Shown: piece by piece, positions 845-50,600 of the stretch | Layout: every line of letters starts with the position of its first letter | Numbering within the stretch: position 1 is the stretch's first letter | Source of the DNA: Podarcis pityusensis | Taxonomy: Eukaryota | Assembly: GCA_964106645.2 (NCBI GenBank) | Contig: OZ067038.1 | Direction: 5' to 3' (one strand) | Length of the DNA stretch: 64,000 nt | Translations under genes and position numbers: made by a program | The notes under the pieces: model-generated | The model's database searches: none | What the model was told of the DNA's origin: nothing | The model's input: only the letters and a program-made list of their open reading frames with translations

Positions 845-981
845 AGTATTGGGAAAGGGTCTTTATGGTGTATAGACCCAGAATATAGACAAAATCTTAT
901 CCAGGCTTTGAAAAAGACCCCCTATCACCCATATTCGCATGTGTTCAGCACCCCTCCAGCGTCTCCTCAGGCATATCAAAG
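845..981 (+). CDS. FOXN3: FOXN3 (CHES1) internal coding exon, end of forkhead domain
   Basis: Polypyrimidine tract plus ttgcag acceptor (AG ends 844) and AAG|gtaaga donor at 982. Translates [45 protein letters not shown](S). GKGSLW is the forkhead wing motif and the sequence is recognised as FOXN3. 137 nt, phase 0 to phase 2. Confidence 0.96.
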
Positions 982-2429
982 GTAAGAAAACTTGAATATA
1001 ATTTTAACATGGGCAGCTGCTTTTGTCTTATCTCAAATACTGGATCAGGCAAGGTCTAGAAATCGGGGAGGGCTCCTAACAACATTATGTAGTCTAGCTT
1101 TTACTAGAATGCCTCTGCTTGATGGGCTAGCAAAGGCGATTACTGCGCTTATCGCAAATTAGTTGTACTTTAACTGTTGAAAGATCCAAAGTATGCACTC
1201 TTGGTATGTAAATTTAGCTCAGGTCAATCGACTTGTGCATATTTGGGATCTTTTAAGGCACAACTAATTGTGATAAGCGATCCCAGGTATGTAATCTCGC
1301 TTAACAGCACAGGATGCACCTTTGCTGGTTTAAACCAAAACCCACCTAATTCACTGTTTTTTTGCAAGAAACACAGCAACCCGTTAGTTCTCAGTGGCCT
1401 GCTGGAAACTCATTGGTGGCCTAGTGGAGACAAATTAGACCACAGTCTGTCTTCTGCCCCACTCCCTGCCATAAAGGACTACAGCAACTGCAGAAAGCAT
1501 GGTAGTTCCCTAAACTTATTGGTACTTAAATCGTCAGTTAGAGCCGCAGTATGTCTTACCGGTTTTGGAGGAGCCGACCTGTTCATTTGCAGTTTGTCAT
1601 TGTAAGTTTCCAGTGCTCCTTTGGATGTTTCTGAAAAACATTCTAGCTGCTTGTGCTCAGGGCCATAGCTGGAGTTTTAAAAGGGAAAGGAAACCGGCTG
1701 GGTTTTCCTCTTTGCTTGCATGAATAGATGTGTACCTCTTTGGAAGCAGGTCGGTGGTGCTTTTTGTCCTCCTAGCTCCCTACTTGGTAGATCGCTTTGT
1801 CAACGCAGCTATATAAACTTTTGCTTCTAGGTAACAGGAAGCTTCCCTTGCTGTTGTGGTTACCTGCTCTGTGAGGCGAGTGTGTCTGTGCATGGTTATG
1901 CCTAGTTGCCATAGCTCACTCCTGTTCATCTTGTAAAAAAGGTGAACCAGGACTGGTGACTTTGAAATGTCATTGGAGGGGGAAAATGGAAGTACAGTAC
2001 TTGAACAGTGATTGTTTGTTTCTTGTTTGTCCTACTCAGGGGAAAGTATGAGATAATTACGGGGTATCAAACCGCCCGCTTTTCATAACAACCATTCGGG
2101 AAATGAATTATTTGTTTCTACAAACGGAGGATCAAATCACATCTGCACGTAGGACAACAATAGGCAAATTTATAAATAATAATGATTTAGAAACTTGTGT
2201 TACCTGTTGCACAAATTAGATCTAAGCTACACCCACCTGCCTGGCTGCAGATATATATGTTAAAAGCCGATAAGGAATTTTAAATGTGTATTTAGATGGG
2301 GATTTTGGGGGTGGTGCAATACTTTTCTGCCCCCCTCCACTCAAGTTCCCTGCTTTTAAGAAGCCAGCAACATGCAAAGTAATTTCGTTCTGGTAACGTT
2401 AATGAGGTTCTCGTGCATCTGTGTTGATC

Positions 2430-2700
2430 CGCGCGTTCCGTCACATGACCCAGACAATCAATCTTCAGGCAGAGATTGGGAGGAACAGCTGGGCTTTTGC
2501 AGGAGACGGCTGTATGTCTGCCCTTGCTAGGCGATTAGCGTGATGGTAACCATAGCGACTAGAACGTCTCCATAGCAACGCATAGCTGAGACAGGTGCAG
2601 TTGCATCACAAGGCTGTTGCCTGGCAAAAGGACAGGCCATTAGTACTAAGATATACGCTGTTGCCTTGGTAACGGATAACCCTACATAGCAACTACAGTG
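2430..2700. promoter_or_regulatory. Candidate intronic enhancer/promoter with homotypic RFX X-box cluster
   Basis: GTAACCATAGCGAC 2546-2559, GTCTCCATAGCAAC 2566-2579, GTTGCCTGGCAAA 2616-2628, GTTGCCTTGGTAAC 2660-2673, CCCTACATAGCAAC 2680-2693. Also GTCACATGAC E-box at 2440-2449 and local CpG retention. Confidence 0.6.
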
Positions 2701-3009: not shown

Positions 3010-3357
3010 GGGACGCGGGTGGCGCTATGGGTTAAACCACAGGGCCTAGGACTTGCCGATCAGAAGGTTGGCGGTTCGAATCCCCGCGACGGGGTGAGCT
3101 CCCGTTGCTCGGTCCCTGCTCCTGCCCACCTAGCAGTTCAAAAGCACCACAAAGTGCAAGTAGATAAATAGTTACCACTCTGGCAGGAAGGTAAACGGCG
3201 TTTCCGTGCGCTGCTGTGGTTCGCCAGAAGCGGCTTAGTCATGCTGGCCACATGACCGGGAAGCTGTACGCCAGCTCCCTCGCCCAATAAAGTGAGATGA
3301 GCGCCACAACCCCAGAGTCGGTCTCGACTGGACCTAATGGTCAGGGGTCCCTTTACC
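3010..3357 (+). mobile_element. Sauria SINE (Squam1-type), full length
   Basis: gggacgcgggtggcgct head with B box ggttcgaatcc and a tttacc tail. Imperfect TSD tagaaattattagt / tagacgttattagt. Near-identical copies elsewhere in the window. Confidence 0.92.
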
Positions 3358-3572
3358 TAGACGTTATTAGTAGCAGCAGCAATAGTGAGATCAAGCATTT
3401 TTGCCCTGCTCTTTAGTAAAATGTTTCCAGAGTTCTATAGGCAGGTTTGCGCTCAGGCTTACATTCTAAAATACATGACATACAAGGGGAAAGGGATGGA
3501 GAGGGAGGAGGAAAAAGGCAAGTTAGGGCACTAGTTCTTATGACGACCACCTGGGAAGGAAACAGTTTAGGG

Positions 3573-4068: not shown

Positions 4069-4110
4069 GTTTAGGGAGCCTGAGGGTGGAATGGCTGCAG
4101 CTAGGTGATA

Positions 4111-4301
4111 CAGTGGTACCTCAGGTTACGGACTTAATTCGTTCCGGAGGTCCGTTCTTAACCTGCATCTGTTCTTAACCTGAAGCACCACTTTAGCTAA
4201 TGGGGCCTCCTGCTGCTGCCGTGCCGCCGGAGCACAATTTCTGTTCTCATCCTGAAGCAAAGTTCTGTAACCTGAAGCGTATGTAACCCGAGGTACCACT
4301 G
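4111..4301 (-). mobile_element. pogo/Tigger-like MITE family A (internally deleted)
   Basis: TIR cagtggtacctc / gaggtaccactg with TA TSD. Strand is given relative to the copy at 4402. Confidence 0.9.
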
Positions 4302-4401
4302 TAGTTGGAGGGGGGGACCCAAAGGCAACTGGTATCAGCAGAGGCAATGGAATAGCGCTGGTTCCCATCTCTACTCTGTCTTGCGGCCTGATGGAGATGT
4401 A

Positions 4402-4643
4402 CAGTGGTACCTCGGGTTACAGACGCTTCAGGTTACATACGCTTCAGGTTACAGACTCCGCTAACCCAGAAATATTACCTCGGGTTAAGAACTTTGCTTC
4501 AGGATGAGAACACAAATCGTGCTCTGGTGGTGCGGTGACAGCAGGAGGCCCCATTAGCTAAAGTGGCCCTTCAGGTTAAGAACAGTTTCAGGTTAAGAAT
4601 GGACCTCCGGAACGAATTAAGTACTTAACCTGAGATACCACTG
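4402..4643 (+). mobile_element. pogo/Tigger-like MITE family A
   Basis: TIR cagtggtacctcgggtta and TA TSD; six copies in the window. Confidence 0.9.
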
Positions 4644-5085
4644 TATATGGGTTTGTTTACCCTGGCATATATAAGATTGTGTTGTTAATATCTGCTTTAT
4701 CCTCTCAAACGTGCCCAATAAATTCCACAATAGTCTCTTTGATGTTTGTGGTTTTTTCCTGTATCCCTCCCTGAATTAGTCACCAATCTGCTCTGGCCCA
4801 AAGTAACTAAATGTTTTGTAGCCTGACCTTATAGAGCCACAACAGTACAAGCCAAGCCTTACGCTGCAGCAGAACAATAGCAGCAATATCTTATCTCTGC
4901 CATGCATAGCTCGACCCTAAGTGGCACTCACAGTTTGGGAGGGCAGGAGAGAACTGTCAGGGGCAAAGGCATTTAAGAGGGTGCATGAATGGGTCCGAAT
5001 TTTATCCACACCAACTCGGCACATGAAGCTGCTGCAGGGCTTGGCTATGGTGTCATTTACTGGCATAGTAGTTGTTTGTTTAGAA

Positions 5086-10920: not shown

Positions 10921-11271
10921 GGGACGCGGGTGGCGCTGTGGGTTAAACCACAGAGCCTAGGACTTGCTGATCAGAAGGTCGGCGGTTTGAATCCCCGCGA
11001 TGGGGTGAGCTCCCGTTGCTCGGTCCCTGCTCCTGCCAACCTAGCAGTTCGAAAGCACCTCAAAGTGCAAGTAGATAAATAGGAACCGCTCCAGTGGGAA
11101 GGTAAACGGCGTTTCCGTGTGCTCCTCTGGTTCGCCAGAAGCGGCTTAGTCATTCTGGCCACATGGACCCAGAAGCTGTACGCCGGCTCCCTCAGCCAAT
11201 AAAGCGGGATGAGCGCCGCAACCCCAGAGTCGGTCACGACTGGACCTAATGGTTAGGGGTCCCTTTACCTT
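10921..11271 (+). mobile_element. Sauria SINE, full length
   Basis: Perfect 13-bp TSD taaaggtaaccaa (10906-10918 and 11272-11284). Confidence 0.94.
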
Positions 11272-12847: not shown

Positions 12848-13267
12848 TCCTATACGGATACAGGTTTTGTGTTGAAAAGCCATGTGTGGAGACACAACTT
12901 TTAATGCCGAAGACCACAATATATGTGTGGTGTGTGTACATACTTCTTGCACACCGCAGGCTAGGAACATTTTTCAGCCTACAGGACACATTCCTTCGTG
13001 CGCAATCTTCCAGGCGCCATGTAGTATAATTTGAAGCATGCAGAAGTCAGAGGTTTACACACCCTTACCTGTTCATCCTCAAATCAGGGCAAGTAAGAGG
13101 CAATGTCATAGCTCAAGGGCGCATTTCTTCCTGGCAAAAGCATTAAAGGAGAGCATGTAGCAGAACTTTTGAGTGGCATGACCTCAGGAGACACCCAAGG
13201 ACCAGGTCAGCTTCCAAGTGCCTAATTCGGGTCCTACCTCCGAAGTTGCCTTCCTCTCTCCTATACA

Positions 13268-13792
13268 CAGGGCCGTCTTACCCATAGGCACTAGGGGTGC
13301 CAGGCTGAGAGTCTGGGGCTCGAGAGTTGAGTCCGGGGAAGAGCCCACCCGCTGGTCGGAGCGCTGCGGCGGGCTCTTCTGCTGCAGGTGGCTCTCCACC
13401 CCAACCCCCCGCCCTCCTGCCCAGCCTCTGATGGCGGTCATCGTCGTCAAAGTCTTAAGGTGCCACAGGACCAAAGCGAGTGGGTGCTCCGGGTCCCCGG
13501 ACGTGCTTTCGCGAGCCGCCCACAGAGGCTTGCCACTTTCCTCCTTCCCTTTCTCTGCCTCCCAAATTTTAGGCGCCTTGCTGGAGATGGAGGGCAACAT
13601 GTGAGCAGGGAGGGGAACGCAGGCGACAAAGAAATAGGCTCGGCCATTTTATTTGATCTGTAACCCCCTCCCTGTCGCCAACACCCGGTGTCCGACTGAG
13701 CTCCAGCTGCAGCAGTTCCATCCAGAAGGTGGGGGGGGGGCCCGCCAGGCGAATTTTTGCCCCCGGTGCCACATATGCTTAAGACAGCCCTG
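13268..13792. mobile_element. GC/CpG-rich non-autonomous hAT element
   Basis: TIR cagggccgtctta / taagacagccctg (12 of 13 match) and perfect 8-bp TSD cctataca. Confidence 0.88.
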
Positions 13793-24121: not shown

Positions 24122-24472
24122 CAGTGGTGCCCCGCAAGACGAATGCCTCGCAAGACGGAAAACCCGCTAGACGGTTTTCCGTTTTTGAGTTGCTTCGCAG
24201 GACGAATTTCCCTATGGGCTTGCTTCGCAAGACGAAAATGTCTTGTGAGTCTTGAGATTTCTTTTTTCGCTTTCCCCCCCTTTATCTAAGCCACTAAGCC
24301 TTTAATAGCCTTTTAGCAGCTAATCCGATAAGCCGATAAGCCTTTAATAGCCGCTAAACCGCTAATAGCGCTAATCTGTTAAGCCGCTAATAGGGTTGCT
24401 TCGCAAGACGAAAAAACCGCTAGACGAAGACTCTCGCGGAACGGATTAATTTCGTCTTGCGAGGCACCACTG
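24122..24472 (+). mobile_element. pogo/Tigger-like MITE family B
   Basis: TIR cagtggtgcc[ct]cgcaagacgaa and TA TSD, with internal cgcaagacg and gccgctaa repeats. Confidence 0.9.
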
Positions 24473-25230: not shown

Positions 25231-26911
25231 AGCTTCATGGATGGGGGAAGGGTGTTTTCTTTGCGTGTTTGGCAGCACTTTTGAACTATTTCAGTCTCTT
25301 TCCTATGTATTTGCTAATGTTAAATGTATGCCCTTTGCAGGGAAAGGGCCAGGCTGGGAGAGACCCATTTCTGAAGTCTTGCAGAGCCTCTACCAAGTCA
25401 AGCCTATTACTTGTGAGCACATTTGTGCACAAATTACGGGCTGTTGTTTTCTTTTTAAAAAAAATTGTCTGTAGAAGGAAACATTTTTAAACATTGTTTC
25501 ATTAACCCACAGCTTTATTGAACATGTCTGGCATCCTAATTTTCCCTTGGCAACTTCCCTACAAATGCCACCGAAGTAAAATGTGGTGGTGGAGAAGGAG
25601 GAGGAAATGCTTTCAAAGAAATCTTAACAGCACTCTCAGAAACAAGCAAAAAAAGGAGGGGGAAGCTTTAGTCAAAATGCTTAAGTGTTTGAACTAGATA
25701 GCTTGATTTGAAAATATATTTCTCCAAAGTTATACTGGATATGTTGTAAGCAACCCAAGAGGGACTCAGGTGTTTTCGATCCTTTGCTCACGTCTTCTGA
25801 AAACTATTTTAAGAAAATGGCAACGGCTAGAACTCTGCTGCAGAACCAGAGAGTTCTGCTCTTTGCCACTATGCCAAGCAGTATATATAAATTTGTTCTT
25901 GAAGTAAGTCGTTTCTCTGACTTCAGCAGCTTCCCGCTGATGGGACACAAACTCAAAACTGGTTAGTACTCCTGTTTGCTGTTCATGGGAAAAGAGGCAT
26001 GGGCTCCTCCCAAATTTATATAGGCACGATTCCAGTAGCTTAGATCTTAGTGTGTCACCCAGTAAGATTGCTGTACAAATATGAAAATAGGAGAATTGCA
26101 TGCTAACAATGGAAGGCAGTCTGTCATTGAAGAGGGATGGAGGTGAGAAGATTTTAACTTGTTTATTTCTAATTAGTTTATATTTCTGGAAGAAGTTTCT
26201 GGGGATAATGAGAAATTGTTAACCCCAACATTAGTTTATTTTACAACGTAGTAAAAATATTATGAGCCCTATCCATCCTGAGTTCAAGCACTTTTAAATA
26301 CTCAAAACAGGAGACTTTAAACGTGTTTGAACATTAGATGGATGGTGCCCTAAATGTCTTGGCATAAACACATTAAAATATTGAAATATATTTTAATTAG
26401 TCCAGTTACTTTTCTGTTTCTTCTCTTCCTTGACTTGCGAAGAATACTGCTAGCTGTTGCTAGGTAACACCTAATTGTGATATTAACTGCCAGCAGCTGT
26501 CAGAAGGAGCGGTAAATTCTTTTATCTTGTTAACAAAATTTACTAAAGCGATGGCAAGACATAAATATTCATTTTTTAATTTCAAAATTTTATAATGCTG
26601 CAATGTAGACTAGGCTGTGACTAGGTTTTATATATTAGCAATTCTTTGTAGAACTTCTGGCTAAAGAAACAGTCTCTAATCCTACTTCTACCTCGTTCCT
26701 GCCCTAAACGTTAGCAGATCATTGTATTGTACGTTGTTGAAGGCTGTTTTCAGATTGCCAAGTGATTATTTATAAACATAGATATGAACATTAGTAAGAC
26801 CTGTTGGCGTTCACAAGTGTAGATGGATTCCTGATTGCAAATCCTTCTCTCCCGCTTTGATGACTAGCTGTGAGGACTAAGCTCCTTTCAATTCCTGCCA
26901 GTCATAAAGTA

Positions 26912-31100: not shown

Positions 31101-31371
31101 TATTTTTGTTTCTAGATTTCTCTTCCCTCCCTTCTTAAAAGTGTGTGGGCCGACATTGGGCTGAGTTTCTTCTTGTGAATAGAATGTGATAGTTAAATAA
31201 TTATTTTTTTTAATGAAGAGCTAAGCCCTACGCTTTAAAAACAAAATGCTCTGTTCTTACCACAGTGAAACAGATGCCACGCTTTAAAAAAAAGGAAGAA
31301 GAAGGTATAATTATGCCAACTGCGAAATCACATAAAGATTTTCTTTACACTTCTTTTTTTATTGCCTTCAG

Positions 31372-46931: not shown

Positions 46932-47646
46932 GTGTTGTTGTTGTTTACATTTATATACCACCCTTCAGGATGGTTCACAAGATAAAAACACAAAATAAAT
47001 AGTTAAAAACAAAAGACAATAAAACAAAAACACCTCCCACATTTAAAAGGCCACAGAATATTAATCAGCCACTGGCCTGGTTGAAGAGGAGCATTTTTCA
47101 AATGGTGCCTAAAGATGTACAGTGGTGCCCCGCAAGACGAATGCCTCGCAAGACGGAAAAACCGCTAGACGAAAGGGTTTTCCGTTTTGGAGTTGCTTCG
47201 CAGGACGAATTCCCCTATGGGCTTGCTTCGCAAGACGAAAATGTCCTGCGAGTCTTGAGATTTTTTTTCACTCCCCCCCCCCCTTTATCTAAGCTGCTAA
47301 GCCTTTAATAGCCTTTTAGCAGCTAATCCGCTAAGCCTTTAAGCCTTTAATAGCCGCTAAACCGCTAATAGCGCTAATCCGTTAAGCCGCTAATAGGGTT
47401 GCTTCGCAAGATGAAAAAACCGCTAGACGAAGATACTCGCGGAACGGATTAATTTCGTCTTGCGAGGCACCACTGTATCATGAAGGCAGCAGACAAACCT
47501 CCCTGGAAAGAGCGTTCCACGGACAGGGGGCCACTGCAGAAAAGGCCTGTTCTAGGGTTGCCATACTCCAGACCTCTTGTGGCATGAAGAAGGGCCTCAA
47601 AAGATGATCTCAGGTTGGTTTATATGGGGAGAGGTGGTCCTTGAGG
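46932..47646 (-). mobile_element. Old L2 3' fragment interrupted by a MITE
   Basis: gcgttccacggacagggggccactgcagaaaaggcc is the reverse of an AFSAVAPCPWNAL motif. (TTG)n tail at the left. Confidence 0.65.
47120..47475 (+). mobile_element. pogo/Tigger-like MITE family B
   Basis: Nearly identical to the 24122 copy; TA TSD. Confidence 0.9.
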
Positions 47647-50600
47647 AGAACTGTCAGTACAGTGGACCATAAGTGTAGGTCACACATCCTTCCTAAGGGT
47701 TCTTTATCCCCTCCTCCCTTTGTTGTTGTTTTTCTAATTGATATGGGCTTGATGTCCTTGGATAACCTGCTTTGGCATCCCACTGGACCAACCTTGGCTA
47801 AGGAGTCCTGGCCCTTCTCACTGCGCTTGGCAGAACTGACCTGATGCCACTGAGAGACTATAGGTACCCCTTCACCTAGGTAGCTTGTGTGCCAAGAAGC
47901 TAACAAGGTAATTTATAACACGAACTCTGAAAGTGGTGGACTTCCTGTATAATCTACGGCAGTCTCTTGGGGCTTCCAGATGATACTCTTCTGCACAGAT
48001 TGAGAATACGTTGTAAAAAAACACGATTTTTATGTAGCATTGTGTGGGTGTGCAATTCAAAAGGGGGGAGAGCGAAAATTGTTACTGGACCCTTGTAACG
48101 CCTCATGTCTGCCTAAAACTGATTCACAGCCTCAAATCTAGACCTGTACATAGTTCATTTTCCATTACAGTCAAAAGAATCGGGATAAATGGCTGATGTG
48201 TGCGTGATTTGATGGATAGATTCTGATCAGTGGGTTTCTCCACCCTTTCAGCTGCTAGATCCAAGATACTGTGCAGGGTCTTTTGTTACTACACAGAACA
48301 ATATATGTGTTCTGACAGCAATATGGTTCTTATAGATATAATTGTCTAATGGAACATGAAGAGAGCTGTGGTGTTCATATTGGAGAGGGGTGGGGAGAAT
48401 CCAATTTTGCTCCTGATTGGATGGACAAAGCAATTTTTAAAATTTGTGTGAGGGGGAACCTCTTGGATTATGTTGATCAGGGTAGCCAATGAACATCCAT
48501 CCCCCCTCTCCGAATATTCCTGAACTACAGCTCCCATCATCCCTTATTATTGGCTGTGCTGGCTTGGGCTGATGGTTGTTGAAGTCCAACAACATCTGGC
48601 GGGCAACACATTGGAGATACCTACTACAGATCTTCTCAGAAAACAGATGGCGTAAAAGCAAAAGCTTGTGTCACAACAGCTGACACTTAAATTCTGGTAA
48701 TTAGATCATGAAAGAGAACTACAGAATAGTTATTCGTAGGTTGTGGGAAGGTGCTCAGGTTATCACAAGCTTAGTTGAAACACATCTCTCCAGTAGAGAG
48801 ATTTAGAAATAAGGAGATAGCAGTTGAAATGCAGTGTTTTGCTCTGAGCTTAGGCGAGGAATTCTGATTACCCCTAGGCAATTTTTCAGTAGACAAAAAT
48901 GGATCCACCCCCACCCCCCCAGTTGTTGAACGGCTGTTTACAGCTAGGAAAGCTAAGTGAATGTTTTATGAGCAAAGCCTTATGGGGCAGCTGCTGTTTG
49001 GAAAGGAAGGCAAAAATTACATTTTTTGTTTTTGTTTTTGCAAAGCACTCGCCTTGAAGTGATTAAAGGACATTTTGGGGTCCACAGATAAAATGTTGAT
49101 CGTAAATAAAGCCGCCACCAATTGCACACAAATAGCAGCATTTTACTCTGAGCCTATGTGTGGGTCTCCTTCAAATTAGGTGGCTTTCTAAACGTGCCGT
49201 GTGGCATTTCCTGTTCAGCCTCTGTTTTACATGATATAGTGCTTGTGGTATGCGAAATGTTACGGGTTACCATAGCAACAGATAGCTGGCCTGCACTGAG
49301 GAAGGAAATGCTACCGTCAAGATGTCTTGAACTGGGAAACGGCTGAAACTGTAGCAAAGGTATCATATTATTGGCCTGTATTACACACTTTGGAGACTCT
49401 CCCCAACACATCTAGGGTGTCCATTCTAATGTCTGAATCTGGCAAGTGGTACATTAAATGTTCGTTTTTTAGTATTTTAAAGGACTGCAAGGCTTCCATG
49501 CTACACTTCTCTGCTTTGACTTGAAAAACAAAGCTGAATTGTCAATAGGCGACATTCCTGGCATTTTCCTATTATGTATTATTTCCTATTATTCACATAT
49601 AAGAGAGAGTTGTCATGTCTTTGCAGTATACATATAATACTTAGATTTGGTTTCTTATTCCCAATAACTAATTTGCAGTAGGTCACTCTCAAGGTTAAAA
49701 TCAGTATTCTATTGAAGCATCCTTAATGGGCTAGGTAAGTTGTCCCTGGCTTGATTTCAGAGAGTTCAAGATACTTCTAGGTATGCAGGGAAAATTCTCT
49801 TCCACATTTAGGAGGTGCTTTGCCTCTGCATGCCAGTTGCTGCGGGGGCACAAGCAGGGAGAACCCAACAGCCCTGCTTAACCATAGTTTATTAGGCTGC
49901 CATGCCCAGGTGCTCACCAAGCTAACAAAGGCACAAGCAGATAGAAAATAATCCAAACCTTGGAGAAACTACCTGTGGTTTGTTGGTTGGTTGGTTTGCT
50001 TATCGGTGAGATGACTTTTAGTTTGTTGAAAAAACCATGGTTAAAACAAACCATGGCTTAATCAGGACCATCCATGCAGTGTCCATGGGAGCACTGGCAG
50101 AGACCTTCCCTGGCAGTCATAGGGCCCCCCCCAGCCCTAAAAAAATTAGACTTGAAGGAAATATTCATCTGTAGCTAATACAATAGATTACACTGTATTC
50201 TGGGTTGATTTGTGTGAGTGGTGCCCATAAGAGTTCCTCCAGCATGCAGATGGGGCAGTGGCCAAAAAAGATTGGCATTGCCTGTGTCCAGATGCAGCCA
50301 CTGCGTGCTATGGATTATACTGTGAAAACAGTGAAGCTAAAATATTAAGTTTAAGAAAGTGCTACAATGCTATCCTTACTGTGTGGTTTATTATATACAT
50401 GTTGTCTCTGTGTTGGATTTGGTTTGTGGCATGTGCTTGTTTTTCGTTTTGCCAGCACCCATTTTCTTAAAATATTTGAAAATAGCACATATAGAAATAT
50501 GGTTGTACTGCTTTAGTATTCAGTCAACTATGCACAATGTTTCGTCAGCTATGAGGCCAACAAGGGTTGTCTTATTATTATTATTTTAATGGCATTAGTA

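Follow-up and report, generated by a model that had tools for sequence, protein, structure and literature searches.

Background

What does a tight group of RFX-type X-boxes do within an intron of FOXN3 in a lizard: does it start a transcript of its own, or does it act on the gene that hosts it? FOXN3 represses cilia genes through RFX3 and limits its own expression (10.1101/2024.10.28.620684; PMC12304973), and an antisense unit at this locus is of interest for the way in which ciliated cells might get round that brake.

The window, that is, the whole stretch of 64,000 nucleotides that was analysed, corresponds to G000:C1:23994001-24058000 of a 1.5-Gb genome. X-boxes were scanned for with the consensus GTNRCC N0-3 RGYAAC as given in the preliminary description of this DNA rather than with a PWM, and splice scores come from an approximate matrix. 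RNA reads of four of the 24 listed runs (X15, X17, X22 and X24) were compared with positions 700-2508.

Results

An X-box cluster in the FOXN3 intron

The exon at 845-981 encodes the C-terminal segment of the FOXN3 forkhead domain, and RNA reads spliced at its 5' edge support the assignment. The next FOXN3 exon lies near 31370; the intron between them measures ~30 kb, and the cluster sits 1.5-1.7 kb into it. The preliminary description had likewise assigned the cluster to a FOXN3 intron. That description counted five X-boxes and a weaker one. Four of them (2546, 2566, 2616 and 2660), each with at most one mismatch and all inside 130 bp, and the weak one at 2523 were recovered (Table 1), while the site at 2680 was rejected as a full X-box, having four mismatches that all fall in its left half; since this site is a right half-site, the tally becomes four good sites, one weak site and one half-site instead of five plus one. 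Likewise, of the two pairs said to be spaced by 20 bp, one holds two full sites and the other includes the half-site.

Table 1. Features of the window that bear on the X-box cluster and the candidate antisense unit
Feature	Position	Strand	Basis
FOXN3 coding exon, 137 nt, end of forkhead domain	845-981	+	translation; splice scores 9.8 and 11.2; reads in X22 and X24; loose end at 842
Probable antisense exon, 109 nt	1560-1668	-	4 reads of X24 opposite FOXN3, none in flanking bins; minus-strand acceptor and donor
Read pair of single-cell run X22	1654-1788		minus-strand RNA 5' end near 1788 or template-switch mis-priming artefact
Second, proximal X-box-like group	1823-1919		1905-1919 (1 mismatch); 1823 and 1850 weaker (2 mismatches, relaxed consensus)
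Strongest minus-strand splice donor in 1500-2508	2232-2240 (last exon base 2237)	-	score 9.5, top 0.34%, approximate matrix
CpG run, then USF/MiT-TFE type E-box GTCACATGAC	2429-2440 (CpG run), 2440-2449 (E-box)		motif match
CCAAT box	2475-2479	- (forward on minus)	motif match
E-box CAGCTG (Ascl1 type)	2486-2491		motif match; CAGGTG also at 2592
X-box, weak	2523-2535		2 mismatches to consensus
X-box	2546-2559		1 mismatch
X-box	2566-2579		1 mismatch
X-box, 13-bp form	2616-2628		1 mismatch
X-box	2660-2673		0 mismatches, perfect consensus match
X-box right half-site (formerly site 2680)	2688-2693		left half 4 mismatches, right half 0

Helical phasing, which had also been proposed, turned out to be borderline, with p values between 0.018 and 0.25 depending on the sites and the period chosen. 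At a period of 10.5 bp, a Rayleigh-type test gave p=0.14 for four sites, 0.057 for five and 0.018 for six with the half-site included; with the period floating from 10.0 to 10.8, the values were 0.25, 0.19 and 0.067, respectively, and two equal neighbor gaps among six sites are expected in 23% of random placements.

The density of the sites, on the other hand, exceeds what chance delivers, and the X-box cluster is a real element. The segment 2430-2700 contains four X-boxes, whereas dinucleotide shuffles of it average 0.11 and none of 5000 reached four or more; furthermore, no 150-bp stretch with four X-boxes arose in 200 block shuffles of the window, in which the best was three, found in 5 of the 200. 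At 2523-2693 the cluster is the densest in the 84 kb examined. The proximal group of Table 1 lies about 0.7 kb from it. As a claim about sequence, an RFX input module at this place is well supported.

Promoter-type content and copy number

The CpG run, the E-box and the reverse CCAAT that had been described upstream of the X-boxes are all present. The interval 2401-2600 holds 11 CpG; across the window, the median for 200 bp is 2. A motif scan of 2300-2800 returned no FKH, FHL or TATA motif. The CpG, CCAAT and USF content looks promoter-like. The layout of MHC-II promoters (S-X-Y) does not fit, with the CCAAT on the other side of the X-boxes.

The claim that this DNA is non-repetitive held as well. 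The segment 2380-2740 has one match in the 1.5-Gb genome, and because of this single match, which alone is not proof of rarity, the cluster does not appear to be carried by a repeat; no tandem repeat was found in the cluster stretch either, and we rejected a repeat origin. Among the subset of CpG-rich stretches tested, seven of the eight others have repeat copies within the window and the cluster stretch has none. A second CpG-rich stretch, at ~13250-13700, is also without a copy elsewhere in the window.

Several repeats lie nearby or carry similar motifs. The SINEs of the window resemble those of lacertid lizards. One of them, at ~3015-3360 and presumably of the Sauria type, lies 300 bp to the right of the cluster and carries a one-mismatch X-box-like 13-mer at 3104; its copies near 10950, 20700 and 56600 each bear this 13-mer too. 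Small inverted-end elements at ~4110-4645, 19800, 22325, 23830 and 32630 also give one-mismatch X-box-like matches, so that the background count of the window is inflated. Two related 42-bp tandem arrays (24287-24366 and 47289-47396) are CpG-rich and repeated in the window.

Away from the cluster, perfect X-boxes occur in FOXN3 introns at 26456-26468 and 49266-49279, with FKH motifs within about 170 bp (26364 and 26561 for the former; 49102 and 49128 for the latter) and, near the X-box at 26456, a CAGCTG at 26494.

RNA from the strand opposite FOXN3

Run X24, a stranded bulk library with a related species label, of which about 12% was read, gave 12 aligned reads. In 8 of 8 reads on the FOXN3 exon the first mate lies on the minus strand and in 4 of 4 reads at 1554-1675 it lies on the plus strand (the 8/4 split follows from depth arithmetic), while the neighboring bins have no depth. 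A first mate on plus means that the RNA at 1554-1675 came from the strand opposite FOXN3. This pile comprises four reads, perhaps two molecules, and 384 read-bases; all X24 reads align in part only, 10 of the 12 continuing into unlike sequence. On the minus strand, an acceptor precedes 1668 (top 14%) and a donor follows 1560 (top 0.7% of GT sites). Such splice signals prove little by themselves, because the 84 kb contain 48 acceptor-donor pairs with scores no worse than these. The region is single-copy, and we regard 1560-1668 as a probable antisense exon in the FOXN3 intron. No splice junction from it is listed among the X24 reads, and splice scores did not single out downstream antisense exons.

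The exon lies about 0.9 kb from the X-box cluster, and the strongest minus-strand donor of Table 1, at 2237, is 200-300 bp to the left of the cluster; further minus-strand donors lie to its right, at 2719 and 2819. Neither X22 nor X24 yielded reads on 1798-2508, including the predicted first exon (2237-2500). The small-share runs X15 and X17 produced 0 contigs on 700-2508 and carry no weight either way.

The single-cell run X22 contributed a read pair that ends at 1788. Its 23 unaligned letters, compared with 22 in the library oligo (sequence taken from PMC9546772), would fit a tagged 5' end, but the eight bases followed by GGG that come after 1788 also fit mis-priming; because of this ambiguity the pair was not counted as evidence. 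The nearby TATA match, at 1810, belongs to the plus strand. Another loose end of X22, at 958, is a Smart-seq3 tag whose adjoining stretch complements the 3' end of the oligo; as an antisense start it was rejected in favor of mis-priming, the reads also carrying the upstream FOXN3 exon. In addition, the interval 1661-1786, bounded by an acceptor at 1660 and a GT at 1787, could be a cryptic exon of the plus strand that contains an in-frame stop; the one X22 pair over this interval is better explained as a tagged fragment.

Coding potential of the probable antisense exon

One frame is open over all 36 codons of the 1668-1560 exon, and a related run shows two differences in the exon, one of them synonymous in this frame. 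Could the antisense unit be a small protein-coding ciliary gene with the cluster as its promoter? We consider this variant of our preferred reading quite improbable. With the short 36-codon query, no homologue was found in Pfam, PDB, 1.84 billion representatives or the ESM Atlas, and word searches among proteins of 22-70 and 71-2000 aa gave no match; a six-frame comparison with distant FoxN2/3 loci recovered the FoxN exon only. Open frames of 36 codons are common by chance, the sole phase-compatible upstream ATG exon has a donor score of 2.1, and mouse 3300002A11Rik, discussed below, is filed as a lncRNA (PMC10045570). The antisense transcript is probably non-coding, although a coding role retains some weight because the query was short and covered the exon instead of the spliced product.

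Candidate counterparts in mammals

We take human RP11-356K23.1 to lie antisense inside FOXN3 and mouse 3300002A11Rik (ENSMUSG00000033731) to lie antisense inside Foxn3, and we assume that the two are orthologous and that both start just after the exon matching 845-981. Genomic coordinates for the two RNAs were not found in the literature searched, including the consulted parts of PMC9542162, PMC12519442, PMC11288953 and PMC5548003, the last two of which hold list mentions only. RP11-356K23.1 is ENSG00000258752 (PMC5356355), maps to chr14, where FOXN3 is given as its associated gene, and has a level in ovarian carcinoma 1221-fold below that in fallopian tube (PMC5979786); it is among listed ciliated-cell markers (PMC10357887). 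It is possibly identical to FOXN3-AS3, both terms occurring once in PMC12519442. Mouse 3300002A11Rik is an ependymal marker (PMC11924690).

In ependymal cells, the 3300002A11Rik promoter has ChIP peaks of RFX1, RFX2 and RFX3 (PMC7498320 Table S6). Among the peaks assigned to Foxn3 (12 for RFX1, 3 for RFX2 and 12 for RFX3; PMC7498320), two are separated by 0.9 kb, one at +52.8 kb for RFX1 and RFX3 and the other at +53.7 kb for all three factors (Table S8 of the same paper). Judged from gene sizes, these two peaks would lie just after the matching exon. Two results speak against the parallel: Table S1 of PMC7498320 lists 3300002A11Rik but gives no fold changes for it in the single knockouts of Rfx2 and Rfx3, and the Foxn3 knockout genes searched (PMC12304973 supplement) do not include it. 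In the largely open-access literature searched, we found no paper that connects either RNA with RFX or with the control of FOXN3, or that reports a reptile counterpart.

X-boxes at distant FoxN2/3 loci

Ten distant animal FoxN2/3 loci were retrieved from metagenome contigs (62-79% identity), none of which has an intron alignable to that of the lizard. Seven were counted, leaving out L011 and L013, which are near-copies of L012, and L014, a weak match. In these, six perfect X-boxes occur in 40,758 bp compared with 0.5 expected (0 of 300 simulations), at the following positions, counted from the point where the FoxN exon match ends: L006, -1905 and +459; L007, -600; L009, +1994 and +5639; L012, +5448. 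The three remaining loci have no perfect X-box. The LxxLxWL motif that binds Rfx3 according to 10.1101/2024.10.28.620684 is likewise encoded by L006, in the form LTSLAWL.

Discussion

A proposed promoter for a nested antisense transcript

We propose, with a probability of roughly 0.55, that the cluster is a promoter from which RFX drives a nested antisense transcript, perhaps with a second role as an enhancer of FOXN3. Its distance of about 0.9 kb from an opposite-strand exon makes it a likely promoter of this transcript; factor binding, transcription start, exon join and cell type are what we infer. RFX1/2/3 dimers would bind several of the sites at 2523-2693 in motile-cilia or germ cells, while NF-Y at the CCAAT box and a USF-type factor at the E-box, both on the left side, would set a minus-strand start near 2400-2500. 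The first antisense exon would then end at the donor 2237 (or 2204) and be spliced to 1668-1560, from where the RNA would continue towards the FOXN3 exon at 845-981; the same element may also act on FOXN3 as an enhancer. At the level of motifs, unique CpG-rich DNA, promoter-factor motifs and a downstream minus-strand donor are all present, and the CCAAT box reads forward on the minus strand, which is that of the antisense RNA and of the donor 2237. Against the proposal stands that the antisense RNA is known from four reads of one run with a related species label. Its start could also lie at the proximal group (1823-1919) or to the right of the cluster. Of the options that the preliminary description had allowed for, regulation of FOXN3 or the start of an internal or antisense transcript, it is the antisense one that gained direct, if thin, support from the 1668-1560 exon.

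The lizard antisense transcript is probably the counterpart of RP11-356K23.1 and 3300002A11Rik, an orthology that we infer. Like the lizard unit, these are FOXN3-associated RNAs, the mouse promoter being bound by RFX and the lizard exon lying beside an X-box cluster. The mammalian RNAs are markers of multiciliated cells. In addition, the spacing of 0.9 kb between the two mouse Foxn3 peaks is similar to that of about 0.7 kb between the two lizard X-box groups.

Enhancer, sense transcript or chance

Could the cluster instead be a FOXN3 intronic enhancer only, which RFX together with Foxn4/Ascl1 activates and FOXN3 represses in a negative feedback, the antisense RNA starting elsewhere, e.g. near 1800-1900? 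This is possible but clearly the less probable account. In mouse, Foxn3, Rfx3 and Foxn4 bind two enhancers in Foxn3 introns that are responsive in reporter assays (10.1101/2024.10.28.620684), Foxn3 mRNA rises in knockouts and Foxn3 autoregulation is reported (10.1101/2024.10.28.620684; PMC12304973); given this precedent, the option of an enhancer of FOXN3, raised in the preliminary description, may be kept by analogy. The Ascl1-type E-boxes at 2486 and 2592 would also suit it, and the X-box excess at distant FoxN2/3 loci suggests that an RFX input to the host gene is ancient, although that count lacks a genome-wide control and three of the loci are close kin. However, the stretch 2300-2800 combines several RFX sites with no FKH or FHL site, unlike mouse enhancer 2, and its CpG, CCAAT and USF content is that of a promoter. 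Responses of the host gene itself also speak rather against an enhancer: Foxn3 was not found in the knockout table of differential expression, its identifier appearing only in Tables S8 and S10 of the consulted material (PMC7498320), and Xenopus foxn3 rose 2.4-2.9-fold after multicilin induction at one of three time points, with adjusted p of 0.11 and 0.27 (PMC5245798, 12 of 17 supplementary files). The promoter and enhancer roles are, in any case, not mutually exclusive.

We give little credence to a start in the other direction, by which an internal sense FOXN3 transcript would be spliced to the exon near 31370 and encode a protein without the forkhead domain. The X-boxes are near-palindromic, plus-strand donors of moderate score follow at 2853 (6.9) and 2882 (6.6), and the forkhead-coding exon ends upstream, at 981; yet a poly(A)-type signal, ATTAAA, lies on the plus strand at 2726, ahead of both donors, and the sole stranded signal besides FOXN3 in the reads over 700-2508 comes from the minus strand. 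That the sites arose by chance or from a repeat and have no function is hardly credible: neither the 5000 nor the 200 shuffles reached four sites, the DNA is single-copy and it contains no tandem repeat.

What the antisense unit might mean

The promoter reading can be extended, in a form that we regard as doubtful, to an amniote-wide switch. Antisense RNA fired by RFX would silence or truncate FOXN3 by transcriptional interference across the forkhead exon in multiciliated and germ cells, its output in mammals would be RP11-356K23.1 and 3300002A11Rik, and RFX sites would have stood in FoxN2/3 introns since early bilaterians. If a conserved RFX-driven antisense unit is indeed present, it would offer a testable route by which ciliated cells escape FOXN3, and a function for a widely used, unexplained ciliated-cell marker. 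Should the cluster be no more than an enhancer or a bystander promoter, it would be an ordinary RFX target, and the gain would be modest, namely that the arrangement is shown outside mammals.

Comparison with known RFX targets

Among the closest published elements are the mouse Foxn3 enhancers 1 and 2 (Zhang, Nair, Meng, Turner; 10.1101/2024.10.28.620684), which share with the lizard cluster the gene, the intronic position and the presence of E-boxes, and which are bound by Rfx3 in mouse. Enhancer 2 does not fit the cluster, because it combines one Rfx3 site with the forkhead sites FKH and FHL-N, in contrast to the 4-5 X-boxes and the lack of a forkhead site in 2300-2800; in its layout it is closer to the lizard X-boxes at 26456 and 49266. 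Enhancer 1 may be the counterpart of the cluster. Beyond this gene, the promoters of motile-cilia genes targeted by RFX1-3 (Lemeille et al., PMC7498320) have the same X-box consensus; these authors infer that most bound regions contain a single site or 2-3 close ones, so that four to five sites in 150 bp place the lizard cluster at the high end. Closely spaced multiple sites, as in the lizard, are likewise known from the multi-X-box genes of C. elegans (PMC3245922). Judged by its motifs, the cluster would function as RFX target promoters commonly do, with an unusually large number of sites.
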